A DNA stretch of 64,000 nt from an uncultured Bacteroidaceae bacterium (GCA_964539395.1 CAZIIU010000014.1:8304-72303), one strand, 5' to 3'; shown: positions 1 through 60,581, counted from the stretch's first letter. Program-made: numbers and translations. The notes: generated from the letters alone by a model not told the origin.

Positions 1-147
1 GATTCTCCCAAGGCTGTAGTTCACGGAATCGCCCACTATCAGTGCACCGGTAAGTACTGCGGTGCTAATCGCGATCCCCAGCGACAACAGGAGGTTGCGT
101 TTGTAGAAAAAAAACAGACTTCGTATGATCAGTTTCCGCGGATTCAT
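1..147 (-). CDS. ABC transporter permease (FtsX/MacB/LolE-like), 5' part only; runs off window
   Basis: Read manually: ATG at 147 overlaps the stop of the upstream ATPase (ATGA coupling). Translation MNPRKLIIRSLFFFYKRNLLLSLGIAISTAVLTGALIVGDSV is typical of the first TM helix of FtsX-family permeases. Confidence 0.8.
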   Translation of the reverse strand, partial: MNPRKLIIRSLFFFYKRNLLLSLGIAISTAVLTGALIVGDSVNYSLGRI

Positions 148-821
148 TGTTGTTCCAGCTTTCCTTCTATGATTTCATAAACCGTGCTCATTTTTGATGC
201 AAGTGCCCTTGAGTGTGTTACCAGTATGAGGGTTGTGCCTTCTTCGCTGTTCAATTGCAGAAGAAGTTCCGACATTCTTTCCACATTTTTCCAGTCGAGG
301 GCGCCTGTTGGTTCATCGGCGAGTATGAGCGAGGGTCGGTTAATCATCGCCCGTACCACAGCGGCACGCTGGCACTCTCCTCCCGACAGCTGTCCGGGCA
401 GCTTATTCCTGTGTTCCAGGAGTCCGACCCTTTTTAGCAACTCTTCGGCGTATTGGGTCTTCTGGTTGTGATCAGATCGATCCACCAGGGTGGGGATCAA
501 CACATTTTCGATCAGGTTACACTGGGGGAGGAGGTGGTGGAACTGGAACACAAAACCTATTTCACGGTTTCTGAAAAGGTCGAGTTCGGCATCAGTGAAG
601 GTTGTGATATCCTTGCCTTTGTAAGTATAGGAACCTGAATCGGGACGATCGAGCGTACCTGTAATATTCAACAGAGTGCTTTTACCGGAGCCGGAGGGAC
701 CGAGGATTGCGATCGTATCACCTTCATTTACTGAAAACGAAAGGTTAGCGAGCACTACCTGGTGATTGGTACGGGCAGGACTGCCGTATGCTTTTGAGAT
801 ATTCTGAAGTTGAAGCAGCAT
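144..821 (-). CDS. ABC transporter ATP-binding protein, LolD/MacB-like
   Basis: Walker A GPSGSGKST, GFVFQFHHLL, signature LSGGECQR, Walker B ILADEPTGALD, H-loop VTH. Confidence 0.93.
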   Translation of the reverse strand: MLLQLQNISKAYGSPARTNHQVVLANLSFSVNEGDTIAILGPSGSGKSTLLNITGTLDRPDSGSYTYKGKDITTFTDAELDLFRNREIGFVFQFHHLLPQCNLIENVLIPTLVDRSDHNQKTQYAEELLKRVGLLEHRNKLPGQLSGGECQRAAVVRAMINRPSLILADEPTGALDWKNVERMSELLLQLNSEEGTTLILVTHSRALASKMSTVYEIIEGKLEQQ

Positions 822-2069: not shown

Positions 2070-4040
2070 TCAATCAGGTGAGAATAGTTCTCCTGCCAGA
2101 TTGATTTTCTCCTGGTCGCCCAGCAGATAGGTAATATCCCCCTCTTCCATCTTCATTCCCGGGTCTGGGTGCTCCATGATGGTATCCCCGCGCTTAATAG
2201 CTAGCAAGGTAACACCGGTCTCCTCCCTTAGTCTCATATCCCTGGCAGATTTGCCGACTGCTTCCGATCCGGCCTCAACACTCACAGCGGCGATATTGAT
2301 GGTCGACATTTCATCAAAGATTGAAGTGGTATTCAATTTATCCTTCTCCGTGTATTCACCAAGGTGTTTGCTCCTGAGGTGCGTCAGCATGCGGTTGATC
2401 TCCCGCAAAGGGTAGAGCTTTTCTACCAGTACCCCGTTGAAAAGATCGATCGCTATCTCCAGCTTTTCGGGAAGCACCTGGTCGGCCCCTGCTTCATACA
2501 TTGGTCCTACATTCTCCACGCTATGCACCCTGGCGAGAATCCGTACATTTTTGCTCAGGTGCCTTACCCTGTCAATGATGGCCATGGAGGTGATCATATT
2601 TCCAATAGAGATTACAACGATCTCAGCCTTATCCACATGTGCTTTCAGCAAAATCGGGTCGTTGGCTGCATCTCCGTAAACGACATAATCGCCCGCATCC
2701 ATCTTCTCTTTGGCTATGGAGGGGTCAAAAATTATTGAAGCATGTTGCAGCTCAAAGTACTTTGCCATCTGCGATAATTTAATGGCGCTTGCATCAGTCC
2801 CGATAATAACCAGGTGGTTTTTCAATTCCGGTATATTGATCTCTTTTAAAGGAAAAAGACCATTTACCCAGAAAGCGGGCAGCGGTAGCTTCAACAACCG
2901 GTTCGCAAGGGGGGAGGAGAACCTGATAAGGAATGGTGTAATGGCCATAGTAGTTACCGATACAGCAAGGAAAAGCTGAAAGTAGAAATTTGAAATAACT
3001 GATTGATCGACACCGATCTTAGCCAGGATAAAGGAGAACTCCCCCACCTGACTCAGTGCCAGTCCGACAAGCACCGTTCCTTTGAATGTATGTCCCAGAA
3101 TAAATCCAACACCACCGGCAATAATCGTTTTAAGGACAATAACAAGAAGAACGCTGACCAGTACCAGCCATGGATTGTCCACAATGAACGTCAGGTCGAG
3201 CAGCATTCCCACGGAGACGAAGAAGAAACTGGTGAAGATGTCTTTGAACGGTAACAATTTTGCAAAGGCGTTGTGGCTGTATTCCGAATCGGAAATCATC
3301 AGTCCGGCCAGGAAAGCACCGAATGCAATGGACATGCCCAGTTCGTGTGTAAGCATGGCCACTGAAAAACAGACGAGCAAAATGCTCATGATAAAGAGCT
3401 CCTGGTTTTTTGTCATGGCAACCTTATGCAACAGCCAGGGAAAGAGCCATTTATTACCGGCATATACAAAAGCCAGTATTGCAACGGTTTTTATGGAAAG
3501 AGAGAATATCTCCCTGCCCACATTGATGGAACCGTCGCCCAGGATATTGGTAAACAGCAACAAAGGAACGAGGATAAGGTCCTGGAAGATAAGGATTCCG
3601 AGTACTGTTCGGCCATAATTAGAGGAGATCTCAGAGCGCTCCTGCAGCAGTTTAAGTACCAGCGCCGAACTGCTCAGGGCAATAAGGAAACCGACGAAGA
3701 TTGCCGATTGCCAATCGAGATCGTAGAAAAGCGATACCACGTAGAAAACTCCGGCAGTTAAAAAAACCTGAAGAAAACCACCAAAGAAAACGATTCTGCG
3801 TATGCGCATCAGGTGTTTAAGGGAGAACTCCAATCCGATGGTAAATAGCAGAAGAGCTACGCCAACCTCAGCCAGGATTTCAATGGAATACTCACTACCG
3901 ACAAGTCCCAGAAGGTGTGGTCCGGCTAGAATCCCGGTGAGCAGGTACCCGACCACTGTTGGGATTTTTATCCTCGTGAAGAGAAAATTTACACCTGTCG
4001 CGAGGGCAAAAATGATGATGATCTCTTTTATTATTCCCAT
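2070..4040 (-). CDS. Monovalent cation:proton antiporter-2 (CPA2, Kef/YbaL-like) with TrkA-N and TrkA-C domains
   Basis: Many TM helices; LLFTIGLEFS, ILIFQD, FGAFLAG, LSQVGEFSF; C-terminal YGDA..L..A (RCK-N) and LLAIKRG (RCK-C). Confidence 0.92.
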   Translation of the reverse strand: MGIIKEIIIIFALATGVNFLFTRIKIPTVVGYLLTGILAGPHLLGLVGSEYSIEILAEVGVALLLFTIGLEFSLKHLMRIRRIVFFGGFLQVFLTAGVFYVVSLFYDLDWQSAIFVGFLIALSSSALVLKLLQERSEISSNYGRTVLGILIFQDLILVPLLLFTNILGDGSINVGREIFSLSIKTVAILAFVYAGNKWLFPWLLHKVAMTKNQELFIMSILLVCFSVAMLTHELGMSIAFGAFLAGLMISDSEYSHNAFAKLLPFKDIFTSFFFVSVGMLLDLTFIVDNPWLVLVSVLLVIVLKTIIAGGVGFILGHTFKGTVLVGLALSQVGEFSFILAKIGVDQSVISNFYFQLFLAVSVTTMAITPFLIRFSSPLANRLLKLPLPAFWVNGLFPLKEINIPELKNHLVIIGTDASAIKLSQMAKYFELQHASIIFDPSIAKEKMDAGDYVVYGDAANDPILLKAHVDKAEIVVISIGNMITSMAIIDRVRHLSKNVRILARVHSVENVGPMYEAGADQVLPEKLEIAIDLFNGVLVEKLYPLREINRMLTHLRSKHLGEYTEKDKLNTTSIFDEMSTINIAAVSVEAGSEAVGKSARDMRLREETGVTLLAIKRGDTIMEHPDPGMKMEEGDITYLLGDQEKINLAGELFSPD

Positions 4041-4241: not shown

Positions 4242-5549
4242 TCAACCAGTTGAAACAGGCACGTGTCTGGCCCTCTTATAGACCTCCAACATTTTTTGTA
4301 CCTGTCCCTCAACATGGAAATGTTGTTCGACCCCGGATTTTCCCTGTTTCGCCAGTTCATCCATTCTCAGCTGATCGCCTAGCAGTTCTTTCAGTGCTTT
4401 CGCCAGTGCCTGGGGGGTGTTCGGCTCGTAGGTCACCCCCCCTCCCGATAATCGTACGATTTCGGGGAATGCACCCAAAGCGGGCTGTACAACCGGAATC
4501 CCGGAGGCCATTGATTCAAGCAGGTAGATTCCAAAAGCCTCCCCCTTTCGCACCGGAACCGACATAACAGATACCTCAGCGAAAAAATCGAGTAATCCTT
4601 TTTCTTCAAACTCACCATGAAACTTAACCTGTCCGGCAAGCCCTTCCGTTTCAATTTTTTTTCTCTGCGATTTTAAAAATCCCCTGTCGTCTCCTGTTGA
4701 TCCGCCAGTAATATGAAGCTCCACATCTTCAAACTGCGGGTCCTTCTTTAGCAAAATATATGCATCAACCAGGATATCGAGGCCCAATTCATAACACATT
4801 CTCGACACATAACCAATACTGCGTATTTTTTTGGAAGGCAAAACAAATTTATAGTCATTCGGGTAAACCCCAATGTGGACCGTCGACAGCTTCTCCTCCG
4901 GGATGCGCAACAACCCCTTCATCTCAGCGGCATAGTAATCGCTTACGGCAACAAAAAGCGATACGTCCGAACCCCGCTCCGCCATCAGGTTCCAAACCTT
5001 CTCCTGTGACAAAGGTTGCATAACATCCACCCACTGGTCCTCATCCTGCAGTGAGCAGATCACAGGCACCATCAAGCTTTCAGACAGGCGGCGTGCCAAT
5101 CCGACCAGCAGGGCGTTGGAAAGGTGAATTACATCTGGTTTACAGTGTTCCGACAGCCATTCGATCATTCGATCGAGCTCCTCCTTCTGCTGCCCATGTT
5201 CCCCCAGCAGCATGGAGATGGTCATTTCTTCAAGTCCTTTGGCCCTGGTGGATCCGGCAAATTTTGCAGCCACCTTTAACATCGGTTTGGAATTCAATAT
5301 CCGGTCAACCCAGGCCGGAGCTTTTCTGAAAACAGGGTACTGCTGCTTCAGGTAGATGCTGATGGCACCATAAAACACGGGGATCTCCAGGGTGAGGTCA
5401 TGTTCATCGGCAAAAAGGGGTAAATACATCGGGAGCTTAATCACCTCGTTTTCAGAAGCCCTTAGTGCCTCTATAAACTTACTGTCGCGCAAACAGTTGC
5501 CGCAATAAAAACTTCCACCTGAACCGGGAATGATATGGAGTATCTTCAT
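4242..5549 (-). CDS. Glycosyltransferase family 4 (GT-B) with N-terminal CxxC motif
   Basis: Start MKILHIIPG at 5549; GEAFGIYLLESMASGIPVV (E-x7-E GT4 motif); YCGNCLRD near the N-terminus. Confidence 0.88.
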   Translation of the reverse strand: MKILHIIPGSGGSFYCGNCLRDSKFIEALRASENEVIKLPMYLPLFADEHDLTLEIPVFYGAISIYLKQQYPVFRKAPAWVDRILNSKPMLKVAAKFAGSTRAKGLEEMTISMLLGEHGQQKEELDRMIEWLSEHCKPDVIHLSNALLVGLARRLSESLMVPVICSLQDEDQWVDVMQPLSQEKVWNLMAERGSDVSLFVAVSDYYAAEMKGLLRIPEEKLSTVHIGVYPNDYKFVLPSKKIRSIGYVSRMCYELGLDILVDAYILLKKDPQFEDVELHITGGSTGDDRGFLKSQRKKIETEGLAGQVKFHGEFEEKGLLDFFAEVSVMSVPVRKGEAFGIYLLESMASGIPVVQPALGAFPEIVRLSGGGVTYEPNTPQALAKALKELLGDQLRMDELAKQGKSGVEQHFHVEGQVQKMLEVYKRARHVPVSTG

Positions 5550-5664
5550 GTGTACACTTCTGGTGCTGAAAAGCACATATTAATATTATTGGCTCAAATT
5601 CTGGCTGCTATATTAGTCTTTTACTCTATTTCAATAAATTGGTAACTACTTGATTCCCTAACCT

Positions 5665-6828
5665 TTACTTTTCACCGAAGCAATAGATCCTGCCATCGTC
5701 TGTTCCTGCAATAATGAATCCATCGATCACTGCCGGATTACCCGTTACCGGGCTTCCGATTTCGTAACTCCACCTGATCTTTCCATCTGCTGCATCCATG
5801 ATCAGCAGATCACCCCGCATGGTAGCCACTATCAGTGCATCCTTAACCAATACGGTTGATGCGTCTACCCTGCCACCTGTATTTACTTTCCACACCAGCT
5901 TTCCGCTCTTCTTATTGAATGAATAGACATGCCTGTCCCTGCTCCCGATAAATACCCTATCGCCCGAAAGTGAAGGAGCAGCAATAAAGGGCAAATCGGT
6001 TGCATCATCCTTGAAGCTCCACAACTCCTTCCCGCTCTTCAGCTCCATGCTGGTAAATTTCCCGTCATAATCGCCGATATACGTAACCCCTTTTTCAACC
6101 GCCACAGAGCCTGCTATATATGAGGCGACCTCTTTCCTGCCTACCAGTGTTCCATCCTTTACGCGCACCTGATGCAGCAATCCATCGCACCCACCGAATA
6201 CCGCCACACCGTTATAGATTGCCGGTGCACCATTCAGGAAATTGTCGGCCTCATATTTCCACAATCCTTCTCCGATAGATGCATCAATTCCATGCAGGAA
6301 GTAGTCGTAACTTCCAACCACCACCACACCCCCGCCTTCACTGGTTGAAGTAGCATTATCTCCCGCGGCATCGCCACCCGGATCCCAGTAGTTCGCCGCC
6401 CCCATAATCTGACCTGCTGTTTCGTAGGTCCAGATCGTCCGGCCGCTGGCCACTTCAATTGCAAAAACCTTCCCGTCATAGTTCCCCACATATGCCATAT
6501 TCCCGCGAATCATTGCAGGCGCCTCCACACCATTTCCAGTATTGATCTTCCATTTCATCTTACCGTCAATTGTGAGCCCATATACATTTCCATCCGAAGA
6601 TCCCACAACGATCACTCCGTCACATACCACTGGTGAAGCCTTTACTGCATCACCTGTCTTAAAAGTCCAAAGCAGTGAGGGGTTTGCCGGTATCAAAGCA
6701 TCCGACCTGCCTGAGAATTGCAGATCGCCCCGAAAATTAAGCCAGCAATCCTGTGCCGGCAAGTGAATGCCGGTCAGCAACAGAAGGGAAGCGACAATAA
6801 TCTTTATACATGTTTTTGCACCAATCAT
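5665..6828 (-). CDS. Secreted PQQ-like/BamB-like beta-propeller protein
   Basis: Signal peptide, WLNFRGD, repeated A/D-xx-G-xxx-W blade motifs. Confidence 0.85.
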   Translation of the reverse strand: MIGAKTCIKIIVASLLLLTGIHLPAQDCWLNFRGDLQFSGRSDALIPANPSLLWTFKTGDAVKASPVVCDGVIVVGSSDGNVYGLTIDGKMKWKINTGNGVEAPAMIRGNMAYVGNYDGKVFAIEVASGRTIWTYETAGQIMGAANYWDPGGDAAGDNATSTSEGGGVVVVGSYDYFLHGIDASIGEGLWKYEADNFLNGAPAIYNGVAVFGGCDGLLHQVRVKDGTLVGRKEVASYIAGSVAVEKGVTYIGDYDGKFTSMELKSGKELWSFKDDATDLPFIAAPSLSGDRVFIGSRDRHVYSFNKKSGKLVWKVNTGGRVDASTVLVKDALIVATMRGDLLIMDAADGKIRWSYEIGSPVTGNPAVIDGFIIAGTDDGRIYCFGEK

Positions 6829-6998: not shown

Positions 6999-8552
6999 TC
7001 ATCGCCGTGATAAGGCGCCAGTCGGACACCCCTCAACCACGAGTTCTGCCACCTCTGCCAGCCCGTTTCTCAATGCCTCACCGAATGGTACCCCGATCAC
7101 CACATCAAATCCCCTGCCAATGAAGCTCATTCCGTATTTCTCTTTATGATCCTCAGCAATGTGCACGCAGATCCCGCACTTGATGCATTTATTTGGTTCA
7201 TATATAACGAAATCGTGCTGAATTTGTTTTTCAACTTTCTTTCGATCCTCCGACCAGTAGTGTTTCTGGTTAGCCCGATACTCATGTGCCAGGTTTCTGA
7301 GTTTACAGTCGACCAGGTCGCGACAGTCGCAATGCATGCAGCGCGCAGCTTCCGCCATCACCTGTTCTCTGCTGAGCCCCTGTTCAGGAACTGACGGCTC
7401 AATGCGCTCACCCGGTGCCGCCTCCTTCATATACTCAGGCAACTCCTCATCCATTAGCTTTCCAAACCTGGAATTAAAAAGGAAAGGCTCCCCGGTAATC
7501 TTTTCTCCTTTCAGGAACTGATCGATGCTGAAGGCCGCCTCCTTTCCCTGTCCAAGTGTCCTGATCGCCATTTTTGACGGTCGTACCGCGCTCCCTGCAG
7601 CAAACACCTTTTCCATGCTGGTGGTATAGGCCGACCGGTCCGATGCAATCCCCTTGGCATCCATCTCCACGCCCCATGCGGCAATGCCACTCTCTCCGCC
7701 CCCAACAGCGATAAGTACAGAATCATACCCGTCTACCAGTTTTACGAACTGTGACTGGTCAACCTCCGTTTCCTGGTGAAATACTGCACCCAGTTCCCTG
7801 ATAATCCCCACCTCATGTACCAATACCTTCTCAGGCAGAATCCCCTTCTCTACTTCAAGCCAGAGCTTTCCCCCGGGAAACTTGCGCCTGTCGTATATAC
7901 TGCACTGATAACCTCTCAACTGCAGGTAATAGGCAGCGGAGAGACCGGCAGGACCGGCACCAATCACTGCAATCTTTTTACCGGTTGAAGGTGTCTTTTC
8001 AGGCAGCCAGGGAGAGGCTACTTCCAGCTCCTGGTCGCCTGCATAGCGTTTCAGCAGGCAGATCGACAAAGCTGAATCGACCTGTTTTCTTCGACAGGCA
8101 CCTTCGCAGGGTGCGGGACAAATCCTTCCGAAAACAGCCGGCAGGGCAATATCCTGCTTTACCGCCTGCAGTGCTTCACTGAACCTGCCTTCCGCCAGCA
8201 GACGGTTCATCAGGGGAATGTTCATATGTGCCGGACAGGTGATCTGGCAGGGTGCCTCACAATCGCCAACATGCTCACTGAGAAGAAGTTCCAAGGCCAT
8301 GCGGCGCGACTCTTCCACCTCTTCGTCACGCGTAAGCACTTCCATTCCCTCCACGACTTTTACCGAACAGGAGGGAAACAACCTGCCGTTCTTATTATCC
8401 TTTACCATGCAGACCATGCAGGATGTGAAGTGCGGTTTGCCTTCGCGGTAGCACATCGAGGGAATATCTATACCTTTCATTCGTGCAGCACTGAGCACCG
8501 AGATACCTTCAGGAACATTGACCTCTATATGATTGATGTTTATTTTTGGCAT
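6999..8552 (-). CDS. Fe-S flavoprotein: NuoG/HydA-like N-terminal [2Fe-2S] + GltD/NfnB-like Fe-S/FAD module + C-terminal [4Fe-4S] (BfuA/StnC-like, truncated)
   Basis: IPSMC..SCMVCMV..PSC; HVGDCEAPCQITCP; GRICPAPCEGACRR; KIAVIGAGPAGLSAA; RCMHCDC....CKL; CIKCGIC...CPTGAL. Confidence 0.85.
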   Translation of the reverse strand: MPKININHIEVNVPEGISVLSAARMKGIDIPSMCYREGKPHFTSCMVCMVKDNKNGRLFPSCSVKVVEGMEVLTRDEEVEESRRMALELLLSEHVGDCEAPCQITCPAHMNIPLMNRLLAEGRFSEALQAVKQDIALPAVFGRICPAPCEGACRRKQVDSALSICLLKRYAGDQELEVASPWLPEKTPSTGKKIAVIGAGPAGLSAAYYLQLRGYQCSIYDRRKFPGGKLWLEVEKGILPEKVLVHEVGIIRELGAVFHQETEVDQSQFVKLVDGYDSVLIAVGGGESGIAAWGVEMDAKGIASDRSAYTTSMEKVFAAGSAVRPSKMAIRTLGQGKEAAFSIDQFLKGEKITGEPFLFNSRFGKLMDEELPEYMKEAAPGERIEPSVPEQGLSREQVMAEAARCMHCDCRDLVDCKLRNLAHEYRANQKHYWSEDRKKVEKQIQHDFVIYEPNKCIKCGICVHIAEDHKEKYGMSFIGRGFDVVIGVPFGEALRNGLAEVAELVVEGCPTGALSRR

Positions 8553-8626: not shown

Positions 8627-11041
8627 TCAGCGTATTATCACAGCATCTTCGGGACAAACCTGGCGGCAGCCGTCACACTTGATGCAAAGCTCCAGGTTAA
8701 TCTCATGCTTCTCATGGGGTTTAAATGGGATGGCATCGACCGGACAATCCTGTGCACATAACGTGCAACCGATACAATCGTCGGTGATCTCATAGTGGAT
8801 AAGTTCCTTGCATTTGCCTGTCGGACAGGTTCCCTGGATATGAGCCTCATACTCGTCCCGGAAAAATGCAAGCGTCGTCCTGATCGGGTTTGGCGCGGTC
8901 TTTCCAAGTCCGCAGAGGCTGCCCTTCGTGGTCCACTCCGCCAGCCTTTCCAACTCTTCGAGGTCCTTCATCACACCCTTCCCAACAGTGATCTTCTCAA
9001 GTATCTCGAGCATCCGTTTTGTACCGATCCTGCAGAAGGTGCATTTTCCGCACGACTCATTCTGTGTGAATGAGAGGAAGTATTTTGCCATATCGACCAT
9101 GCAGTCGGTATCATCAAGCACCACCATTCCTCCGGAACCCATCATTGCACCCACTTCAGAGAGCGATTCAAAATCGATTGGTGTATCCGCCATGGTCGCG
9201 GGTATACACCCACCCGATGGTCCGCCTATCTGTATCGCCTTGAATGTCCGACCATTGGCCACCCCACCGCCGATCTCCTCCACGACTTCCCTGATGGTCA
9301 TCCCCATCGGCACCTCAATCAAACCGCCCCGGGCTACCTTTCCCGCCAGTGCAAATACCTTTGTTCCCCTCGATTTTTCTGTTCCCACGCCATTAAAGGC
9401 ATTAGCATTGTGACGCATAATATAGGCTACTTTTGCCAGAGTCTCAACGTTGTTTACAAGGGTCGGCTTACTCCAGAGTCCGGACACAGCCGGGTACGGC
9501 GGTCTCATCCTGGGAAAGCCGCGTTTTCCCTCGATGGATGCGAGCAGAGCGGTCTCCTCACCACAGACAAAGGCACCTGCACCCTGGTAGATTCGCAGAT
9601 CGAAACTAAATCCGCTATCAAGAATACCTTCGCCGAGGAGTCCCTCCTCATAACATTTTTCAATTGCCTCCTGCACCCTTTTAACAGCGAGCGGGTACTC
9701 AGCACGGATATACATGATCCCCTCATCGGCACCAACGGCATAACCTGCAATTATAACCCCTTCAATAATCCTGTAGGGGTATGATTCGAGCAACATCCGG
9801 TCCATGAATGCACCCGGGTCACCTTCATCACCATTGCAGATTACGTACTTCTTATCACTTTTCTGGTCGGCCACCAACTGCCACTTCGTCCCCGTTGAAA
9901 AACCGGCACCTCCCCTTCCCCTGATGCCACTGTCCATTATTTCATTGATCACCTCCCCTGGCGACCTCTCCAAACTCTTTTTCAGCGCCAGAAAACCCTG
10001 TCGCTCCTTGTATTCCTGAATATCCACCGGATTGATCACCCCCCTGAATTCAGTGGCAATCGGTTTTTGCCTGTCGAGGAAAGCAGCTACATGTTTTTCC
10101 CTGATATTCAAGGAATAGCGATCAACTCCCGACCACTTTCCATCGTCGACTATTCCCTCAATAGCGTTTGTTATCTGACTTTTTAATCTGTCAAATAATC
10201 CCTTAGGTCTGAAGTGGTTGCGCACGATCTGTCCCACATCAACGGCTTGTACCTTTGAATAGAGTACCGTCTCCCCAACTGCAGGAACCACCTCTACCAG
10301 GGGTACCTGGTGACACATCCCCACGCATCCCACATGCTTCAGTTTTACATTCAGGTGGTTTCTTTCGATTGTGTTCTGCACCGCATCCCTGATTTCATCA
10401 CTTCCACTTGCCACACAACAGGAGCCCAGTCCGATCCGGATCTCTCCCTGTATCTCCTCACCAGTTGCCTTTCTGAACCGCCGCCTGCTACCACCGTCCT
10501 TTTCGCGTTCAAAATCGCCCAGCACATTGGCTACACTGCCTGAGGCTACATGACCATAGGTGATGTTATCGATCTGAACCACCGGTGCAAGGGTACAGCA
10601 TCCCAGGCAGTTCACCTTTTCAACCGTATATTTCTTATCCTCAGAAGTGTCATATGCCTCCCCAATGTTCAACTCACGGCGGAGGGCATCGTAAACCTGA
10701 CCGGCTCCCTTCACATGACAGGCAGTACCAACACATACTTTGACCATATGGTCACCCGCCGGCTTAAACCTGAACTGTGAATAGAAGCTGGCAACGCCCG
10801 TGATCATGGCTGGAGTGATCTCGGAGTTCTCACAGACACGACGCAATGCCTCCTCAGGAAGGTAATTATATTTCTCCTGGATTGCCTGCAACACCGGGAT
10901 GACAGAGGACTGTTTCCTTCCCAGTCTCTCTAAGAACTCATCAATTTCCCGGAACGGATCTGTCACAATTTCACTTACGGACTCATGCTTCATCTCCGAA
11001 TCATCTGCGATCTTATCAAAATCTGAATTTCTATTCATCAT
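8627..11041 (-). CDS. NuoE-NuoF (HydC-HydB / BfuC-BfuB) fusion: NADH-oxidising FMN/Fe-S subunit with C-terminal 2[4Fe-4S] ferredoxin
   Basis: NuoE CVGTACH...CLGCC; thioredoxin-like GSCC...GCVGMC; GRGGAGF, CNGDEGDPGAFMDR, GAFVCGEETAL, GGPSGGC, ESCGKCTFCR, CIGCTLCAQDCP/CIKCDGCRQVCP. Start uncertain (11065 TTG, 11041 or 10993 ATG). Confidence 0.9.
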   Translation of the reverse strand: MMNRNSDFDKIADDSEMKHESVSEIVTDPFREIDEFLERLGRKQSSVIPVLQAIQEKYNYLPEEALRRVCENSEITPAMITGVASFYSQFRFKPAGDHMVKVCVGTACHVKGAGQVYDALRRELNIGEAYDTSEDKKYTVEKVNCLGCCTLAPVVQIDNITYGHVASGSVANVLGDFEREKDGGSRRRFRKATGEEIQGEIRIGLGSCCVASGSDEIRDAVQNTIERNHLNVKLKHVGCVGMCHQVPLVEVVPAVGETVLYSKVQAVDVGQIVRNHFRPKGLFDRLKSQITNAIEGIVDDGKWSGVDRYSLNIREKHVAAFLDRQKPIATEFRGVINPVDIQEYKERQGFLALKKSLERSPGEVINEIMDSGIRGRGGAGFSTGTKWQLVADQKSDKKYVICNGDEGDPGAFMDRMLLESYPYRIIEGVIIAGYAVGADEGIMYIRAEYPLAVKRVQEAIEKCYEEGLLGEGILDSGFSFDLRIYQGAGAFVCGEETALLASIEGKRGFPRMRPPYPAVSGLWSKPTLVNNVETLAKVAYIMRHNANAFNGVGTEKSRGTKVFALAGKVARGGLIEVPMGMTIREVVEEIGGGVANGRTFKAIQIGGPSGGCIPATMADTPIDFESLSEVGAMMGSGGMVVLDDTDCMVDMAKYFLSFTQNESCGKCTFCRIGTKRMLEILEKITVGKGVMKDLEELERLAEWTTKGSLCGLGKTAPNPIRTTLAFFRDEYEAHIQGTCPTGKCKELIHYEITDDCIGCTLCAQDCPVDAIPFKPHEKHEINLELCIKCDGCRQVCPEDAVIIR

Positions 11042-11140
11042 CTTTCCCTTCACGAACCTGTTCAACTTACCATTGCAAAATACTTTCTCTTCTCAACTGC
11101 CCGGAAGTACCCTACCGTTCATAAACCTTTTCTCGAAATT

Positions 11141-11345: not shown

Positions 11346-13247
11346 CTATTCGCCGATACAATACAAACTTTCATCGCCCCTGATATAAATGCGGCCCTCT
11401 GCAAAGGCCGGGATTGCATATGATGCTTCACCCAGAGCCGGTTCGTTGATCACAGTTCCGGTTCGATCGGCCTTCATGATATGCATAATACCGTTATTGC
11501 CCATGATATACACTCTTTTATCCACGATCATGGGGGAGCTGTATAGTGTCGTGCCAAAATCCTTTTCCCAGACCTGTTCACCTGTTTTTGCATCATAGCA
11601 GACAAATACCCCGTAGCTTGTTGCAAGGTAGAGCAACCCATCGTGGGCCACCGGACTTGCTGCTTCAGAGAGGTAATCGTAGCTCTCCCAGACCACCTCA
11701 GCATTAGGCACCGGCTTAATCGCAACAAGGCTGGCATATTCATTATTGGCAAATACAAGTCCGTCGTCGTAGGCACACGACGGTCCCACCTCACCCATCA
11801 TCACATCCAGCTTCCAGACCTCTTTCCCTGTTTCGAGGTCGTGTCCTGCCACACTTGGATCGGTATTGGTCACAACCTGCATCTTACCATCCACCTCAAT
11901 AAGAATCGGCGATGCCCAGGAGATATGGTTATCGCGTTGTATATCCCATACGGTTTCTCCTGTCTGGCCATTAAGTGCCAGCATGCGTCCACCCCGGCCG
12001 GTATCGTATTGAATGATCAGCTTATTGTTCCAGACCATCAATGAGGATGAATGACCATAATGGTTCTGAGGCACCCCAAGGTTGCGGGCCCAAACGCGGT
12101 TTCCGTTCATGTCGAATGCGATTACATCGCCAGTGGCGAAAATGGCGTAAGCCCTGTAACCGTCAACTGCCATGGTGGGTGCTGACAACCCGGTATCGTC
12201 AGTGACCTTTGGCATGACAGCGGGCGATCCTTCGATGTTATCGGCTGACTTTTCCCACAGCAGCTGTCCGGTATGACGGTTAAAGCAGCTCACAATACGT
12301 GCGCTGTTATCGGCACCTGCAAGAAATAACTTGTCGCCCCAGATAACCGGGGAATTATAACCATGTTTAGAAAGAGCAACTTTCCAGATTACGTTGCTAC
12401 CTGCGGCACCATCCCAATTCACCGGAATATTCCTATGATAGGAGATCCCGAGTCCCCACGGACCCCTGAAAGTGTTGTGGTGCTTTTTTACCTCTGTCAG
12501 ACCGTAAGGTTTTTCCTTAACCTTACCTGTTCCTGCCTGCTCAGTCAGGGGATCACCTGCTGCAACTGCACTTTCAGATGCACCTGCTACCTCCGGTCCA
12601 TTATTCCCGGCTCCTTCAGCTATCCGCGCAACCTGTCCGGCCTCATCCTGTGTTGTCCCATCGCCTTCAGAAGAAACCTCTTCACCGACCGGTAATGAAC
12701 CATCGGTGATCTCAATGACCTGAATCCCTTCATCAACAGCGGCAACTGCAGTTGAACCTCCCTCATCCGGAAAATAGTTGTCGAGGTAATTATTGCTAAA
12801 AAATGCAGCAACGAACGCCAGTCCGAATACTACAATCCCAGTTACAAGAAGCCATCTCCAGGCAGCTTTTCTTGCCTGCAGGAACGATTCACCTTCGGGG
12901 TCGGGCCGACCGATGGTATGTTGTTGGTCGGTGAATATTTTGAGGGATATCGCGAATACGATGCCCCCGAAGAGCAGCAGGAAGACACCGGTTTTGATCT
13001 GCCAGGTTGAGGTGAAATAGGCCTTTCTTACCAGCAGATCGAAATCGCGGATCTCCTCCATCAGCTGTTCATTGTTGGGATCCTCCTCAAGCTGCTCAAC
13101 AAGCGCATTTAGTGTGGCACTCTCCAGCGGTTCATATTTTTTTAGCTGAACAAAATTGATCAGCAACAATGCAGCAACCAGCAGGGTAAAGATCCCTGAT
13201 ATCTGCATCCCTTGCTTCGCAAGTTTTAATTTCTCTTCCCTGGTCAT
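11346..13247 (-). CDS. Membrane-anchored PQQ-like beta-propeller protein (3 N-terminal TM helices, acidic linker)
   Basis: Three hydrophobic segments, E/G/A-rich linker, TFRGP, SPVIWGD, YGHSSS, SWASP, SSPMI blade motifs. Confidence 0.85.
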   Translation of the reverse strand: MTREEKLKLAKQGMQISGIFTLLVAALLLINFVQLKKYEPLESATLNALVEQLEEDPNNEQLMEEIRDFDLLVRKAYFTSTWQIKTGVFLLLFGGIVFAISLKIFTDQQHTIGRPDPEGESFLQARKAAWRWLLVTGIVVFGLAFVAAFFSNNYLDNYFPDEGGSTAVAAVDEGIQVIEITDGSLPVGEEVSSEGDGTTQDEAGQVARIAEGAGNNGPEVAGASESAVAAGDPLTEQAGTGKVKEKPYGLTEVKKHHNTFRGPWGLGISYHRNIPVNWDGAAGSNVIWKVALSKHGYNSPVIWGDKLFLAGADNSARIVSCFNRHTGQLLWEKSADNIEGSPAVMPKVTDDTGLSAPTMAVDGYRAYAIFATGDVIAFDMNGNRVWARNLGVPQNHYGHSSSLMVWNNKLIIQYDTGRGGRMLALNGQTGETVWDIQRDNHISWASPILIEVDGKMQVVTNTDPSVAGHDLETGKEVWKLDVMMGEVGPSCAYDDGLVFANNEYASLVAIKPVPNAEVVWESYDYLSEAASPVAHDGLLYLATSYGVFVCYDAKTGEQVWEKDFGTTLYSSPMIVDKRVYIMGNNGIMHIMKADRTGTVINEPALGEASYAIPAFAEGRIYIRGDESLYCIGE

Positions 13248-13249
13248 CT

Positions 13250-14524
13250 CTAAAACTTTTTATCTACCGGACAATAGTCAATGCATCTGCCACAGCTGAA
13301 GCAGTCGCCTTTGTGGGGTTCATAATCGGTTCGTTTTCTGAGGATAAACTGGTTCATAATCATAATCCCGAGCACCAGACCCAGGTACCCTCCAAGGAAC
13401 CATCCACCCTTTTTAAATTTTGTTCTTATGACAGAGGCCTTCTCTACGAGCTGGTCCATCGACTCGCCCGATTCAAGGAACGCCTGGATATCCAAATTCT
13501 CCTCATCAGCTTTGAGCTCCGGGTGTTTAATGAGCAATTCCGACAGGTAAACATCCGGATGGGCCTTCGAAAGTGCGATGTGTGCACTTGAGACAGCGAG
13601 GCCGCCCAGGAATGCCCATACCGGTACCAGCAATCCGAAAATGGCATACTGCCTCAGGAATTTCCGTACAGTTGAACCGGTCCTTACCTTTTCATCGGAG
13701 GGAGCCTCAATGGCATCGAACGGACATGAGTTGGCGCACAGCTTGCAGTTGATACATTCGGCCGGGGTGATAGATACATGCTTTTTAGAAAAGCGCGACA
13801 TCCATCCGAGCAGCACACTGTATGGACAGAACACCCTGCAGTAAGGCCGTGCAAAGAACATTCCAATCAGCAGAAGGGCGATCCCCAGGATAATCATTGT
13901 ATAAGGACCGTCCATTCGGAAAATCCCCACAAAAGGATCGTACCTGCAAATGATAAAATCGGTTCCGGTAGCTGCAAACAGCACCGCCAATCCCAGATAG
14001 ACATGGGGGATGAACGACAGGGTTTTGCGAACCCAGCTGGAGACCGAAATTGGTTTAATGATCACAAGGTCCTGGATGGCACCCAGCGGACAGGCGGCAG
14101 CACAAAAGGTTCGTCCATAGAACAGGGTAAAAACCAGCGGCAACAGGAAGAACAGCAGCACTGCAACCGATATTTTATACGAGGGATCGAAAATTGTAAG
14201 GGTTACATTCTGAACAGAACCGATCGGGCATATGCAGCCGTTCCTGTAAAAGCCGAAATAGAGCAGTGTGAATACAGTGGTCCAGAGTACACCACGCCGG
14301 GAACGCCTTTTCAGGATGAACCAGGTGGCGAGGGATATTACAGCGATCAGCACCAGCACATCGACAAACTCAAGTGCAACAGCACGCGGCTCAGGTGTTG
14401 TAACATCCGGTTGCTCGTAACCACTTTCAAATTCCGGCTTCGGGAAACGCTGCTGGGCATTGATTGCGACAAAGGTGAAGATTATCAGCAGAAACAGGCC
14501 CGTTTTAAAACTAATCCTGATCAT
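13250..14524 (-). CDS. Membrane-bound 4Fe-4S binding protein (NapH/MauN/RdxA-like)
   Basis: Multiple TM helices; GCICP, GRTFCAAACPLG, RPYCRVFCP, CINCKLCANSCP, CFSCGRCIDYCP. Confidence 0.87.
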   Translation of the reverse strand: MIRISFKTGLFLLIIFTFVAINAQQRFPKPEFESGYEQPDVTTPEPRAVALEFVDVLVLIAVISLATWFILKRRSRRGVLWTTVFTLLYFGFYRNGCICPIGSVQNVTLTIFDPSYKISVAVLLFFLLPLVFTLFYGRTFCAAACPLGAIQDLVIIKPISVSSWVRKTLSFIPHVYLGLAVLFAATGTDFIICRYDPFVGIFRMDGPYTMIILGIALLLIGMFFARPYCRVFCPYSVLLGWMSRFSKKHVSITPAECINCKLCANSCPFDAIEAPSDEKVRTGSTVRKFLRQYAIFGLLVPVWAFLGGLAVSSAHIALSKAHPDVYLSELLIKHPELKADEENLDIQAFLESGESMDQLVEKASVIRTKFKKGGWFLGGYLGLVLGIMIMNQFILRKRTDYEPHKGDCFSCGRCIDYCPVDKKF

Positions 14525-15132
14525 ATGGCCTTCTCCCCATCATTGTTTGGTCCAAAATCGCCTTTGATCATATACGGTTTACTGGCCGGCACACGGCTGA
14601 TGGCATCTGACGGGCATACACGGGCAATGGCACACTCATTGCAGTTCACACAGATGTTGTGCCTGATCTGAAGGTGGAAGGAGCCGTTGCCGAATGAACT
14701 GCACCCTTTAACACATTTACCACATCCGAAACAGAGCTCTTCATCGATGATATATTCAAAGTAGGGTTCCTCAATAAACCGCCGCTCAATGGCCGCGGCC
14801 GGACAAAGCTGCTTCTCGGCCCCGGTCTGCAGGTCGGTCACCCCCGGCTTGAAATAACCGCCACAGAGATCACAATAACCGCACAGATCATAGGCATGAA
14901 CACATTTAACTGCTGAAGGCGCAAGAACACAGTCGGTGGCACATCGACCGCACTGACTGCATTTAAAGGGATCGATCTGCCAGACCATTTTTTCTTTGCC
15001 GGAATTGACTGCAGCCAGTGTTCCCACACCGGCCAGTGATAGTCCTAATGTAAGTCGTGCGCTCTTGTTGATAAAAGAGCGCCTGTCGTATGCCTTATCC
15101 TGATCCTTTTCGTTATCCTTATCCTTTTTCAT
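14521..15132 (-). CDS. Tat-signal polyferredoxin (about four [4Fe-4S]; NapG/MauM-like role)
   Basis: DRRSFI followed by a hydrophobic stretch; 17 Cys including CSQCGRCATDC, CGYCDLC, CFGCGKCVKGC, CVNCNEC.....CP. Confidence 0.85.
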   Translation of the reverse strand: MKKDKDNEKDQDKAYDRRSFINKSARLTLGLSLAGVGTLAAVNSGKEKMVWQIDPFKCSQCGRCATDCVLAPSAVKCVHAYDLCGYCDLCGGYFKPGVTDLQTGAEKQLCPAAAIERRFIEEPYFEYIIDEELCFGCGKCVKGCSSFGNGSFHLQIRHNICVNCNECAIARVCPSDAISRVPASKPYMIKGDFGPNNDGEKAI

Positions 15133-15334
15133 GTTCCTTCTCTTTAATAGCTTCAGGAAGCTTACAGCCGCTGAGCTTGCTACAACCCCGGCATGTTATT
15201 AGTGTCGGACAACCGTCTCCTGAATAGGTAATGCTCTTCTGTCTCCAGATCAGCCCGATCATCGCTGCCATACCTGCCAGGATGGTGGTCCTGCCCGTCA
15301 TCTGAATAAATTCTTTCCTGGTCATATCTGTCAC
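15119..15334 (-). CDS. Small single-TM Cys-rich protein with Tat-like N-terminus
   Basis: MTRKEFIQ + TM helix + CPTLITCRGCSKLSGC; overlaps both neighbours (translational coupling). Start 15334 (GTG) or 15325 (ATG). Confidence 0.7.
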   Translation of the reverse strand: MTDMTRKEFIQMTGRTTILAGMAAMIGLIWRQKSITYSGDGCPTLITCRGCSKLSGCKLPEAIKEKEHEKG

Positions 15335-16293
15335 TTTATTTTCTCAAAGACCCGTATCATGCTTTTATCGAAATCGAGAGCATATATCACATCATTCTCA
15401 TCCACGGCCACCTCCGGCGCCTTGCCATCATCAATAAATTTTTCGGGTGCCGCTACCACACCCTGCAGTTCACCTGAGCTGTCGTATACCTTGATTCGTA
15501 CCAACCCCTTTTCGCTGGTCACAAACGACCCGTCGGAGAGAACTGCGAGTTCAGCCGGGTTACAACATCCAGCAAAACCATCGATCTTCATCGAACCTTT
15601 CTGCCAGAAACCTCGCATCTTTCCATCATCGGAATAGTTCTCGATGGCATGCTTCCCGGTGTTTACCACCCATAGCTCCCCGTAGCTGTTCACTACCAGG
15701 TCGAAGCAGGCACTTGGGATGATAAAGCCGTGACCGGCAGCACTCTCCGATTTTCCCTCGAATTCACCCAGCAGTTCGCCGTCAAAATCATAGCGCAGTA
15801 CCCTCCTGTTACCGGCGTCGGCCACATAGAGCACATTGTCATTGGCAGCCATAGATGTAATAACACAGTTCTTTCCCGGTACTTCCCACGTTGCAATCAA
15901 ATCGCCTTCCTGCGAATATTTCTTAATATGGTCATCAAAACCGATAAAAACAGCTTCGTCCGTAACATGTATGCAGGTCCCTGTTCCCTCGATGCCGGTT
16001 TTCAGCTGTTGCACCCCTTCTGTGGTTACAGCCTGCAAAACCCCATTGCCAGTCAGCCATATAGTTCCATCCTTAATATCTATCCCTTCAGCTTTGTAGC
16101 CCCTAACCGGAAAATTTTTGGTCTCCCGGTAAGTGATAAGTGAGGAATCAACCGCCTTATACTCATCCACATTGTATTCGTAGGGATTATCACCCAGTTT
16201 GTCGGGCTGTTGCGAGGTGTAATCAGCGATGATCACTATAATGATTACGACCATTAACAGTGCAAATAGTAACGAAAGACCTCTCTTTTTCAT
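15331..16293 (-). CDS. Membrane-anchored NHL-repeat-like beta-propeller protein with GCCNP motif
   Basis: N-terminal TM (start MKKRG at 16293); LYVADAGNRRVLRYD, LWVVNTGKHAIE, FAGCCNP, VYALDF-like NHL blades. Confidence 0.8.
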   Translation of the reverse strand: MKKRGLSLLFALLMVVIIIVIIADYTSQQPDKLGDNPYEYNVDEYKAVDSSLITYRETKNFPVRGYKAEGIDIKDGTIWLTGNGVLQAVTTEGVQQLKTGIEGTGTCIHVTDEAVFIGFDDHIKKYSQEGDLIATWEVPGKNCVITSMAANDNVLYVADAGNRRVLRYDFDGELLGEFEGKSESAAGHGFIIPSACFDLVVNSYGELWVVNTGKHAIENYSDDGKMRGFWQKGSMKIDGFAGCCNPAELAVLSDGSFVTSEKGLVRIKVYDSSGELQGVVAAPEKFIDDGKAPEVAVDENDVIYALDFDKSMIRVFEKIK

Positions 16294-16303
16294 TCCTAAA
16301 CAA

Positions 16304-17752: not shown

Positions 17753-17835
17753 TTATATTACCCGTTACACAATAATATTGTTACAGCACTTCAGTGTTAC
17801 TATTCACATTGCTCCTGGCGCGTCTGTTTAAATTC

Positions 17836-19086: not shown

Positions 19087-19179
19087 CAGATCATGTTTTA
19101 TAAATTATATACCAGCAATAATTTGCAATGATGTATGTAAAATGTCTTTTGAATATGCCAGGCCGGGCTTTGTACTGAA

Positions 19180-24187: not shown

Positions 24188-25036
24188 CTATATCAGGTGT
24201 TTATATAGGACATTCATACTCTCTATGCTACCTCCAATATTCGTATTGTTGATCAGTGTACCTGAATAAATGTATCCACTATTCAGGAATGTTTTGTTCA
24301 TTGGAAAAGAGTTGAGCCTTGCAATGGTATAAAAGGTGATCATCCCCTCCTCATACATCGCCTTTTCCATGTCCTGCAGCAAAACCAATGATAACTTTTT
24401 TCCTCTTGCCTCCGGCAGTGTCGCAAAATCGGTCATTTCAACATTTTTGCTTTCGCGGTCCATCTCTGCTGAAGAGAGTGCTATCAATCGACCACGCTTT
24501 TCCACTCCAAAGTAACGTATGTTTTTGCGCATGGTTTCACGGATATAATCGGGATCACTTATTGGAAACGGATAGCTCTTAAAAACCTGTCCGTATAAAC
24601 CTGCAATATCTTCTGAGCGATTCTCCGGGAGGATTTTAACATGATAACGGTTACTGCCTGAATTGCCGGCTTTCACCTGCTTCTTAACCGCATAATCCGA
24701 AAGCAGCGAACTAAAAGTGATCATCTCTTCTGTTTCCATTCCAAGCAGCCTGTCGGAATTCAGGAATTTGGACATGAAGCAGACACTCTCCACTCCACCA
24801 AAGAAGCGGGGTATATAGGCTTCCATCACAAAACCATCTGCATTAAAAAGTGGTGCAGACCAGCCTGGCACCTTGCAAAATATCTTGGTATATTTCTTTT
24901 CCCTCGCTATTCTGTTAAGCTCCGGGATAATAGTACCTGAATCCTGTTTGTCCAGTTTTATCAGGTAAATCCTTTTATTCAGGTCACCGTGCTGAATGAT
25001 CGTATTTTTTCCGATTCTCTCAAACCTATCCGCCAT
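24188..25036 (-). CDS. ablB: Putative beta-lysine N6-acetyltransferase
   Basis: Start MADRFE at 25036 overlapping the ablA stop; [55 protein letters not shown]. Confidence 0.88.
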
Positions 25037-26342: not shown

Positions 26343-26509
26343 CACTAATAATATTGTTTCTACACGAACAAATGTAGCAAAAAAGCTGGTAATGCCTGAA
26401 AATATATGCATGGAATTGGTCATACAACCTGATCTGAAATGTCAGTAAGATGGCATAAAACACTGATAAAAAGAGTACTACCACATGAAAACCTGAATGA
26501 TGCAATAGA

Positions 26510-60556: not shown

Positions 60557-60581
60557 AGAACATTTTTAAAAATAATTGGAA

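Follow-up and report, generated by a model that had tools for sequence, protein, structure and literature searches.

The gene considered here lies on the minus strand, at positions 6999–8552, of a 64,000-nucleotide (nt) stretch of DNA from an uncultured Bacteroidaceae bacterium (GCA_964539395.1 CAZIIU010000014.1:8304-72303), hereafter the window, to whose whole length all positions refer. It encodes a short iron–sulfur flavoprotein of 517 amino acids (aa) which is related, judging by its sequence, to the subunit that binds nicotinamide adenine dinucleotide phosphate, NADP(H), in electron-bifurcating transhydrogenases (BfuA, NfnA or StnC), and from which the NADP(H)-binding domain itself is missing. 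What was established directly is how the protein is built, how far this build is conserved and that it is a derived state, together with the retention of the cluster ligands and the synteny. We consider it somewhat more probable than its opposite that the short protein serves as the electron arm of an NADH/ferredoxin core of the Bfu type, one in which membrane and periplasmic partners have taken over the third reaction, and that it does not belong to a transhydrogenase.

Under this reading, the short protein would be the A subunit, and the fused NuoE–NuoF protein encoded directly upstream would supply the BC core. Descent from NfnA/StnC-like proteins would have involved the loss of the inactive Fdh-like domain and the clusters of its side branch, of one ferredoxin-type cluster and of the NADP(H) Rossmann domain, thereby leaving a chain composed of a pair of half-domains for flavin adenine dinucleotide (FAD), two NfnL-type [4Fe-4S] clusters, and one His-ligated and one Nqo3-N4-type [4Fe-4S] cluster, with the N-terminal [2Fe-2S] cluster leading to the flavin mononucleotide (FMN) site of BfuB. 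Given the loss of its NADP(H) domain, the complex would be unable to use NADP(H) in the known way. The third redox partner would be supplied in trans, most likely by a NapH-like membrane polyferredoxin, and electrons would then proceed to a NapG-like ferredoxin exported by twin-arginine translocation (Tat) and to membrane-anchored or exported beta-propellers. We infer that FAD is still bound, that electrons leave or enter at the FAD end, and in which direction they flow.

Architecture of the short protein and its junction

The reading frame starts with ATG and is open, and its modules were assigned using the translation, Pfam, solved relatives and an AlphaFold2 model. The N-terminal [2Fe-2S] domain occupies aa 1–93 (8274–8552; Fer2_4 at aa 4–75) and carries C34, C45, C48 and C62. 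H94 and a cluster region of the GltD/NfnL type follow at aa 94–180 (8013–8273; Fer4_20 at aa 98–177), with C98, C102, C106, C145, C149, E150, C153 and K168. The first half of the FAD domain, aa 190–284 (7701–7985), contains G198-x-G200-x-x-G203, D221 and G227-G228, as well as a degenerate 'YGIPxYRLP' loop at aa 231–240; its Pyr_redox_2 match at aa 193–285 covers profile positions 2–109 of 291, that is, only the first third of the fold. In place of the NADP(H) Rossmann domain of about 150 aa, alignments and assembled contigs place a short linker at aa 285–312 (7617–7700), behind which the second half of the FAD domain is recovered by alignment at aa 313–350 (7503–7616; F317, and G320-S321 for GD). 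A cluster motif recognised by its conservation, C405-x2-C408-x-C410-x5-C416, lies within aa 401–425 (7278–7352), and an Nqo3-type ferredoxin-like domain with one cluster (C456, C459, C462 and C509) spans aa 449–515 (7008–7208; Fer4_Nqo3 at aa 449–514), the chain stopping three residues past CPTGAL. The ligands add up to one [2Fe-2S] and four [4Fe-4S] clusters, a complement that matches the on-path chain of Caldicellulosiruptor saccharolyticus NfnABC as given in PMC11829005.

In a search against all solved chains, the best relatives were 9bov_A of C. saccharolyticus (E = 1.8e-88), 9n5u_A of Thermococcus sibiricus (4e-84) and 8oh5_C of Sporomusa ovata (1.8e-82). These NfnA/StnC proteins show the same module order over aa 1–517 (Z 32.5–34.8), namely a [2Fe-2S] N-terminus, a His/Cys motif, an NfnL/GltD-like insert with two [4Fe-4S] clusters and an FAD fold, a four-Cys motif and an Nqo3-type cluster. 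The match to 9bov_A falls into two pieces, in which query residues 3–290 correspond to residues 5–292 and query residues 276–514 to residues 426–671, and the same two-piece pattern was obtained with 8oh5_C and 9n5u_A. Unlike these relatives, the short protein has no NADP(H) Rossmann domain, which accounts for the roughly 150 residues absent between the FAD half-domains in the alignment to the solved chains; across reference positions 281–317, the query holds 37 residues compared with 185–198 in 20 Stn-like proteins. One ferredoxin-type cluster is missing as well: all 20 Stn-like proteins carry Cys at positions 466, 499, 502 and 505, which in the query are A, A, A and V. Everything beyond about residue 674 of the 1172–1178-aa chains is also absent, including the Fdh-like C-terminal domain, which measures about 450–500 aa in the bacterial enzymes and about 260 aa in the 963-aa Thermococcus chain.

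The AlphaFold2 model, built from 35 homologues, reached a mean predicted local distance difference test (pLDDT) score of 77.1, with 87–97 across most of aa 181–280. It superposes on 9bov_A with Z 34.8 over 497 residues (chain 3..674), a result with which Foldseek concurs, and on NfnL (5jfc_L) with Z 26.8 over 250 residues at a root-mean-square deviation of 2.4 Å (chain range 47–472). Alignment with the NfnA/StnC relatives and comparison of the predicted structure both confirm the missing domain. An earlier note on this DNA had read from the sequence that the chain loses the NADP(H) domain after YDSVLIAVGG, and the two-piece matches, the 37 residues at the junction and the Pyr_redox_2 match cut off at 109 bear this out. 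Its placement of a GltD/NfnB-like module inside a NuoG-type His/Cys motif agrees with the Fer4_20 match and with the alignment to 9bov_A of the His/Cys motif and of C106, C145, C149 and K168, which fall on the A7 ligands C108, C147, C151 and K170 of C. saccharolyticus NfnA (PMC11829005). The Cys-free terminal ferredoxin motif and the absence of a C-terminal catalytic domain, both also noticed earlier, are equally clear from positions 466–505 and from the end of the protein at aa 517.

At the junction, the string YDSVLIAVGG corresponds to aa 276–285 (nt 7698–7727), and a G-x-G-x-x-G-like string at aa 284–289 is followed by nothing Rossmann-like; conservation of the latter string, a conceivable remnant of a second nucleotide site, was not seen outside the Bacteroidota set in the consensus of the alignment of distant short forms. 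That the short gene is a strain-specific deletion, a pseudogene or an assembly error can be regarded as refuted. Nothing speaks for it except one 243-nt contig of run X1, which has 30 nt in common with the window at the junction (7664–7693), diverges at 7693 and continues in 213 unlike GC-rich letters; this contig is probably a homologue from another mat organism or a chance shared word. On the other side, the frame is open, all listed relatives are short down to 36% identity, and the junction is crossed without indels by contigs of two public runs, which belong to one study and one of which is possibly the source of the window. Because all related loci are short and contigs bridge the junction, the gene shows neither decay nor misassembly. 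Among the public runs found to hold the stretch, there were only these two DNA runs and no RNA run. The description 'clean in-frame loss' given earlier holds as regards the open frame and the sound assembly, but the loss is old and has since diversified, and is not a recent clean deletion.

Several other known proteins share parts of this architecture. The iron–sulfur and FAD domains superpose on the N-terminal unit of NfnL, GltD and dihydropyrimidine dehydrogenase (Z 26.8 for 5jfc_L and 27.4 for 2vdc_G); enzymes of the NfnL/GltD type are defined by two dinucleotide-binding domains, the second of which is missing in the query. The N-terminal part of Nqo3/NuoG of complex I and HydA of HydABC have the [2Fe-2S] domain, the His-ligated motif and the single-cluster ferredoxin-like domain in common with the query, whereas they contain no inserted flavin unit and possess catalytic or large C-terminal domains of their own. 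The family NF045663 ('pyridine nucleotide-disulfide oxidoreductase/dicluster-binding protein', near selenoproteins) aligns with the query in an unbroken manner, aa 98–465 corresponding to profile positions 16–364 of 759 (195 bits against a cut-off of 530), although the N- and C-termini differ. Given that this alignment runs across the junction without a break and that of the genome's own GltD (L161) stops at profile position 202, the comparison suggests that the NF045663 family likewise lacks the NADPH domain and may share the domain-less architecture.

Relatives, ancestry and retained ligands

The 120 best clusters at 90% identity (56–83% identical to the query) measure 469–553 aa. A scan of species-representative genomes yielded 340 relatives, the best 80 of which all match within at most 1,587 nt, the nearest locus at 80% identity being that of a Bacteroidales metagenome-assembled genome. 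A second scan, with an alignment of distant short forms as the query, yielded 495 relatives; among the 80 listed, no match exceeds 1,608 nt, and the groups represented are Planctomycetota, Verrucomicrobiota, Kiritimatiellia, Armatimonadota, Aminicenantes, Latescibacterota, Poribacteria, Calditrichota, Lentisphaerota and Bacteroidota. All 159 related loci that were fetched (L001–L080 from Bacteroidota and L081–L159 from several phyla) are short, so that the outcome which the earlier note had named as refuting its reading, retention of the domain in close syntenic homologues, was not observed. Searched exhaustively, a set of 1.84 billion representatives at 50% identity gave 17,503 protein hits at E ≤ 1e-3. 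Comparison of the query with the 150 best of these representatives gave 139 short rows out of 151; the remaining 12 hold 85–213 residues at the junction, 11 of them 148–213.

The nearest relatives that keep an NADP(H)-type domain are 'PRK12814-type' proteins of about 660 aa (NF009454; P0200 and P0221), which have the same N- and C-terminal parts and also lack the Fdh-like domain. PRK12814/NF009454 (657 positions) is the best NCBIfam model for the query, which it matches in two stretches with 390.3 bits against a cut-off of 916. These proteins differ from the short forms in that 148–213 residues separate their FAD half-domains and R238 is conserved in all 11. Trees were calculated from shared columns, with the junction region taken out and Stn-like proteins as the outgroup, on a sample that is biased towards the query and in which outgroup monophyly is weakly supported (36 in the Shimodaira–Hasegawa-like approximate likelihood ratio test, SH-aLRT). 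With FastTree (178 rows, 20 of them the Stn-like outgroup), the long forms of about 660 aa make up a basal grade giving rise to a 143-row all-short clade whose node is weakly supported. A quick IQ-TREE search of a 62-row subsample (10 Stn-like, 11 long and 41 short rows, 34 of the short rows picked at random) gave the nodes of the long-form grade SH-aLRT values of 97 and 98, placed the query inside a 37-row all-short clade with a value of 99, and set four short rows among the long rows. The absence of the domain is accordingly a derived state on these trees, and the query belongs to a large clade; because that clade is all-short and nested among domain-bearing relatives, the loss is old. The loss also occurred more than once: a single clean loss was rejected, since the trees need at least five state changes, at least three of which are forced by branches with SH-aLRT of at least 95.

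The ligands of the electron chain have been retained throughout this history. Columns conserved in at least 90% of Stn-like proteins were scored in 148 short forms, in which the [2Fe-2S] cysteines C34, C45, C48 and C62 are kept in 98–99%, H94, C98, C102, C106, C145, C149 and C153 in 99–100%, C405, C408, C410 and C416 in 100%, and C456, C459, C462 and C509 in 99%. Together, the 18 Cys and H94 assigned as ligands of five clusters are kept in 98–100%, and E150 is kept in 93%. The four [2Fe-2S] cysteines, H94, C98 and the four-Cys motif are invariant in 35 of 35 Bacteroidota homologues; K168 is likewise invariant in these 35, yet present in only 81 of the 148 short forms overall. Cys at 466, 499 and 502 is kept in at most 7% of short forms. 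In C. saccharolyticus NfnABC, electrons run from FAD through A7, A6, A3, A2 and A1 to the B1–FMN–C1 site, and A4/A5 form a dead-end branch (PMC11829005). With A7 aligned, the lost clusters would correspond to A4/A5, and the names A1–A3 and A6 may be given to those that are kept.

The conserved gene cluster and its candidate partners

The gene is separated by 74 nt from that of an 812-aa fused NuoE–NuoF protein (8627–11065, minus strand), which was identified using Pfam, NCBIfam and solved relatives as the BfuC–BfuB core. Its modules are NuoE, a thioredoxin-like [2Fe-2S] domain, NuoF and a C-terminal domain with two [4Fe-4S] clusters, as reflected in the matches to 2Fe-2S_thioredx at aa 41–184 (the NuoE-like BfuC), Complex1_51K, NADH_4Fe-4S and Fer4_21 at aa 762–809. 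The closest solved chains are NfnB of T. sibiricus (9n5u_B, 5.4e-210), with which aa 209–810 align end to end, and StnB (8oh5_B, 5.2e-203), followed by C. saccharolyticus NfnB (9bov_B) and HydB (7q4v_B). The sequence features of the Bfu family, a BfuB-like NuoF, a BfuC-like NuoE and a BfuA encoded alongside the core, are all found, and on this evidence the upstream partner is a genuine BfuB/BfuC-type core. Nfn and Stn genes stand alone, whereas here BfuB and BfuC are fused and the genes are set among those for membrane and exported proteins. BfuB sequences 'associated with Nfn' (clade 53) are also recorded from Bacteroidetes in PMC9304861.

Further upstream on the same strand, a PQQ_2-type beta-propeller of 633 aa with N-terminal hydrophobic segments read as membrane anchors (11346–13247; Pfam, sequence) lies nearest to the core, and a pair of ferredoxin-type genes lies beyond it. 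The nearer of these encodes a NapH/MauN-like integral-membrane polyferredoxin of 424 aa (13250–14524; Fer4_5) with two C-x3-C-P and two C-x2-C-x2-C-x3-C-P motifs, whose Cys residues are invariant in 28 of 28 homologues; the second encodes a NapG-like ferredoxin of 203 aa with a twin-arginine signal (14521–15132; RR and Cys motifs read from the sequence, Fer4 families). Both lie far under the curated cut-offs, with 38 bits (1.1e-9) against 213 for TIGR02163 and 16.6 against 178.85 for TIGR00397. The pair resembles NapGH, NosGH and MauMN in that a twin-arginine ferredoxin is accompanied by a membrane protein in which two C-x3-C-P motifs are combined with two [4Fe-4S] motifs; in contrast to those systems, no Nap, Nos or Mau enzyme is encoded nearby, and the pair is combined with a cytoplasmic NADH flavoprotein and propellers. 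Still further upstream lies the gene of an NHL-repeat propeller of 332 aa with an N-terminal hydrophobic anchor (15331–16329; Pfam NHL). A propeller of 387 aa with a signal peptide (5665–6828, minus strand; Pfam) is encoded downstream of the short gene, to whose product it is joined by a hydrophobic segment in some lineages.

This order is conserved, the synteny counts referring to loci with enough flank. NuoE–NuoF is present within 4.5 kb upstream in 65 of 68 Bacteroidota and 62 of 65 multi-phylum loci, and all three of NuoE–NuoF, the NapH-like protein and the Tat ferredoxin are encoded upstream in 54 of 58 and 41 of 43. Where the flank measures at least 9.9 kb, the NHL propeller occurs upstream in 50 of 54 and 38 of 40 loci; the 2.5 kb downstream of the short gene include a propeller in 67 of 69 and 34 of 66. 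The cultured isolates Mariniphaga sediminis SY21 and Maribellus luteus XSD2 (L035 and L043) carry the cluster. With a genuine BfuBC core and the membrane polyferredoxin upstream in so many loci, the possible new Bfu subtype proposed earlier is a fair description. No account of the short form or its gene cluster was found in the literature searched, which included passages of PMC10482914, PMC9304861, PMC12018979 and PMC11829005. The gene order makes the NapH/NapG-like pair and the propellers candidate partners in trans.

Natural fusions provide a further view of the protein. Six clusters at 90% identity (P0141, P0277–P0280 and P0282) fuse the short protein to a PQQ-type propeller. In five of the six, a hydrophobic segment resembling a membrane span (Kyte–Doolittle 19-residue mean 1.7–2.2) lies in the linker ahead of the propeller, and these linkers vary in length and sequence; in the sixth, P0277, the C-terminal anchor motif was not matched by the pattern, so its linker is outside the count. 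A hydrophobic linker before the fused propeller places the short protein at the membrane on its cytoplasmic side, with an exported propeller across from it. Two further proteins (P0139 and P0285, 951 aa) fuse the short A-subunit architecture to a URO-D-like domain.

A third type of fusion bears on whether NAD(P)H is still used at the A subunit, either by unconventional binding without the Rossmann domain or by way of a separate flavoprotein in trans. P0126 (domain scan) and P0281, P0283 and P0284 (precomputed Pfam), which measure 969–1184 aa, carry at their C-terminus a second, complete GltD-like unit that includes an NAD(P)-type domain, together with a Fer4 domain, and P0126, P0281 and P0284 fall in the all-short clade of the IQ-TREE analysis. 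These fusions favour such a use, as does the existence of flavoenzymes that use NADPH without a dedicated domain, for example p-hydroxybenzoate hydroxylase. We nevertheless consider it very improbable: Pfam and NCBIfam scans found no gene with an NAD(P)-type domain in the cluster, GltD is the sole further GltD-type protein in the same genome, and the nicotinamide/flavin site is lined in relatives by an arginine and a loop that are not conserved here.

The ferredoxin pair raises another possibility, which we regard as quite unlikely, namely that the flavin exposed by the loss passes electrons to a diffusible small molecule, for instance menaquinone. In that case the complex would act at the membrane as an NADH:quinone (possibly plus ferredoxin) oxidoreductase, with a logic like that of EtfABCX/FixABCX, while the NapGH-like pair would oxidise quinol in a branch of its own that leads to the periplasm. 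Relatives of NapH and NapG are quinol dehydrogenases, though the neighbours match those families weakly, and the variable surroundings of the flavin described below are compatible with a small, undemanding substrate. However, no quinone-binding feature was identified, the 517-aa protein itself lacks a membrane anchor, and the tight gene order with the polyferredoxin pair needs no quinone step. Quinones were also proposed among the third substrates of Bfu enzymes by Schut et al. (PMC9304861), a point in favour of this possibility.

The flavin site and the route of the electrons

The motifs that bind the adenosine diphosphate (ADP) part of FAD are well kept in the 148 short forms, G198, G200 and G203 in 99–100% and G227 and G228 in 97–98%, and the residue at 221 is acidic (D/E) in 144. 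The flavin-proximal loop is relaxed. It reads W-L-E-V-E-K-G-I-L-P in the query instead of YGIPxYRLP, the loop positions and the GD aspartate each being at least 90% conserved in the 20 Stn-like proteins, and in the short forms Y232 is kept in 20%, G233 in 18%, I234 in 19%, P235 in 21%, Y237 in 0% and R238 in 23%; G325, further along the chain, is kept in 6%. The query indeed has G320-S321 where GD is expected, as the earlier note had observed, but this change is not a hallmark of the family. Residue 321 can be any of S, G, N, D and A among the short forms, and it is already variable in the long relatives of about 660 aa, and for this reason 'GD to GS' was rejected as a marker of lost FAD binding.

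Measured against whole-protein identity, the loop (aa 229–240) reaches 1.79x in Stn-like proteins and only 0.89x in the short forms; for the second FAD half-domain (aa 313–350), the drop is from 1.05x to 0.87x. Fer4_20 stays level (1.15x and 1.16x), and three parts rise, namely the [2Fe-2S] domain from 1.04x to 1.14x, the four-Cys motif from 1.19x to 1.32x and the N4-type domain from 1.07x to 1.20x. With the NADP(H) and Fdh-like domains absent and the flavin-site motifs not kept, the protein should not be filed as a subunit of an Nfn or Stn transhydrogenase, an activity that in NfnABC amounts to 17–20 U/mg with NADPH (PMC12018979); the NADP(H) domain being missing family-wide, the earlier note's view that it is not a transhydrogenase is upheld at the level of sequence.

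Several findings weigh against the reading of the short protein as an electron arm handing over to membrane partners. The GD aspartate D321 is kept in only 13% of the short forms; the pairwise identity of the loop is 0.35, as against 0.87 in Stn-like proteins, and that of the linker (aa 285–312), the lowest of any segment, is 0.19 as against 0.30. The earlier note had suggested that the exposed flavin/Fe-S face may dock a partner such as the membrane polyferredoxin, but such low conservation of loop and linker is unlike that of a conserved docking surface. Four of the 35 Bacteroidota homologues (P0009, P0016, P0019 and P0028) carry Phe in place of the ribose-binding Asp 221, so FAD is possibly dispensable in some lineages, and these four may represent a sublineage that no longer binds it. 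Physical contact with any membrane partner is putative, and NuoE–NuoF is absent upstream in 3 of 68 and 3 of 65 loci. The fusions to GltD-like or URO-D-like modules imply that the short protein may serve as an adaptor in other contexts, and thus may be a general adaptor rather than one specific to this cluster. Blastopirellula and Lewinellaceae, which carry the cluster, are aerobic, a poorer fit to a ferredoxin-dependent role. As a separate observation, three of the four homologues with Phe at 221 have an insertion of about 27 residues ahead of the last cluster domain.

Part of this evidence would suit a different picture, in which the FAD half-domains are leftovers and the protein is an iron–sulfur wire or scaffold for BfuBC whose flavin, if present, is not catalytic. 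Electrons would then exit by another surface, for example where the ferredoxin-like domain of BfuB touches the membrane polyferredoxin. The shift of constraint away from the flavin site while the three iron–sulfur parts gained in relative identity, the poor retention of R238, D321 and G325, and the lack of the ribose-binding acid in 4 of 35 close homologues are all in line with it. Nevertheless, 97–100% of the short forms still have the glycines that bind ADP and the acidic residue. The two NfnL-type clusters, moreover, lead only to FAD in the solved enzyme (PMC11829005), and their Cys residues (99–100%) and E150 are still in place; so strict a retention would not be expected of a dead end, and these clusters therefore count against the leftover picture, which we judge to be unlikely.

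We thus retain the electron-arm reading, with the flavin as a candidate hand-over point for which the NfnL-type clusters and ADP-binding motifs speak and against which the relaxed isoalloxazine surroundings stand. Going further, it is possible, and is offered here as a tentative proposal, that the short A subunit forms the cytoplasmic end of a haem-free, all-iron–sulfur conduit across the inner membrane, leading from BfuBC through the flavin end of this subunit and the NapH/NapG-like proteins to the periplasmic propellers, where the reaction at the far end would take place.

The remaining neighbours, all on the minus strand, continue the same surroundings. Upstream, three PQQ_2/BamB-like propeller genes occupy 16304–20379 (open reading frames, synteny): the one at 16304–17752 has a Pfam propeller match, that at 17836–19086 has weak BamB-type NCBIfam matches under the cut-off, and that at 19180–20379 is placed as a putative propeller through homologues (24–59% identity) beside the cluster in related loci. 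Downstream, a GT4 glycosyltransferase (4242–5576; NCBIfam under the cut-off) frequently comes next in Bacteroidota and also in certain other phyla, and a LolD/MacB-type ATP-binding cassette (ABC) ATPase (144–821; NCBIfam under the LolD cut-off) often follows in relatives. The two genes are adjacent in most related loci; in the window, a 656-aa membrane protein, read from its sequence as Kef-type K+/H+ antiporter-like, lies between them (2070–4040, minus strand).

The assembly (3.23 Mb, 115 contigs, 99% complete) contains one copy of the short gene and GltBD, and a long NfnA/StnC was not found in this 99% complete assembly. Three group-A6 [FeFe]-hydrogenase genes (L162, L163 and L164 on contigs C32, C11 and C18), two over the curated cut-off of 765 bits and one under it at 638 bits, each stand beside a NuoF-like gene. 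These three pairs and the studied cluster make four Bfu-type cores in the genome, and the organism, assigned to a Bacteroidales lineage by the nearest related locus, looks like a fermentative anaerobe with several such cores. Elsewhere in the window, adjacent genes at 24188–26423 (minus strand) encode AblA lysine 2,3-aminomutase (761 bits against 525) and AblB beta-lysine N-acetyltransferase (306 against 205), the pair for the osmolyte N-epsilon-acetyl-beta-lysine, which fits the microbial-mat origin of the runs holding the window. A SusC/RagA-type TonB-linked outer-membrane protein (757 bits) is encoded within 57344–62411 (plus strand), followed by a 611-aa protein without an NCBIfam match in the usual SusD-like place.

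Bfu enzymes are now sorted by the catalytic module that supplies the third substrate. If the tentative conduit proposal is correct, the short form would represent a fourth architectural type, with its 'third substrate' outside the cytoplasm, and this type would occur in Bacteroidota, the Planctomycetes–Verrucomicrobia–Chlamydiae (PVC) phyla, Armatimonadota and Acidobacteriota, among others. The short forms would be filed as Nfn or glutamate-synthase-like NADPH enzymes by automatic annotation and perhaps also in the published phylogeny, which places 'Nfn' BfuB sequences in Bacteroidetes (PMC9304861); since the NADP(H) site has been lost in a large, old and widespread branch in which the wire is kept and the gene order locked, such assignments would be wrong. 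The cultured carriers Mariniphaga sediminis and Maribellus luteus make a bench test possible. Together, the loss of the domain, the retained wire and the gene order point to a putative link between the cytoplasmic NADH/ferredoxin pools and the periplasm.

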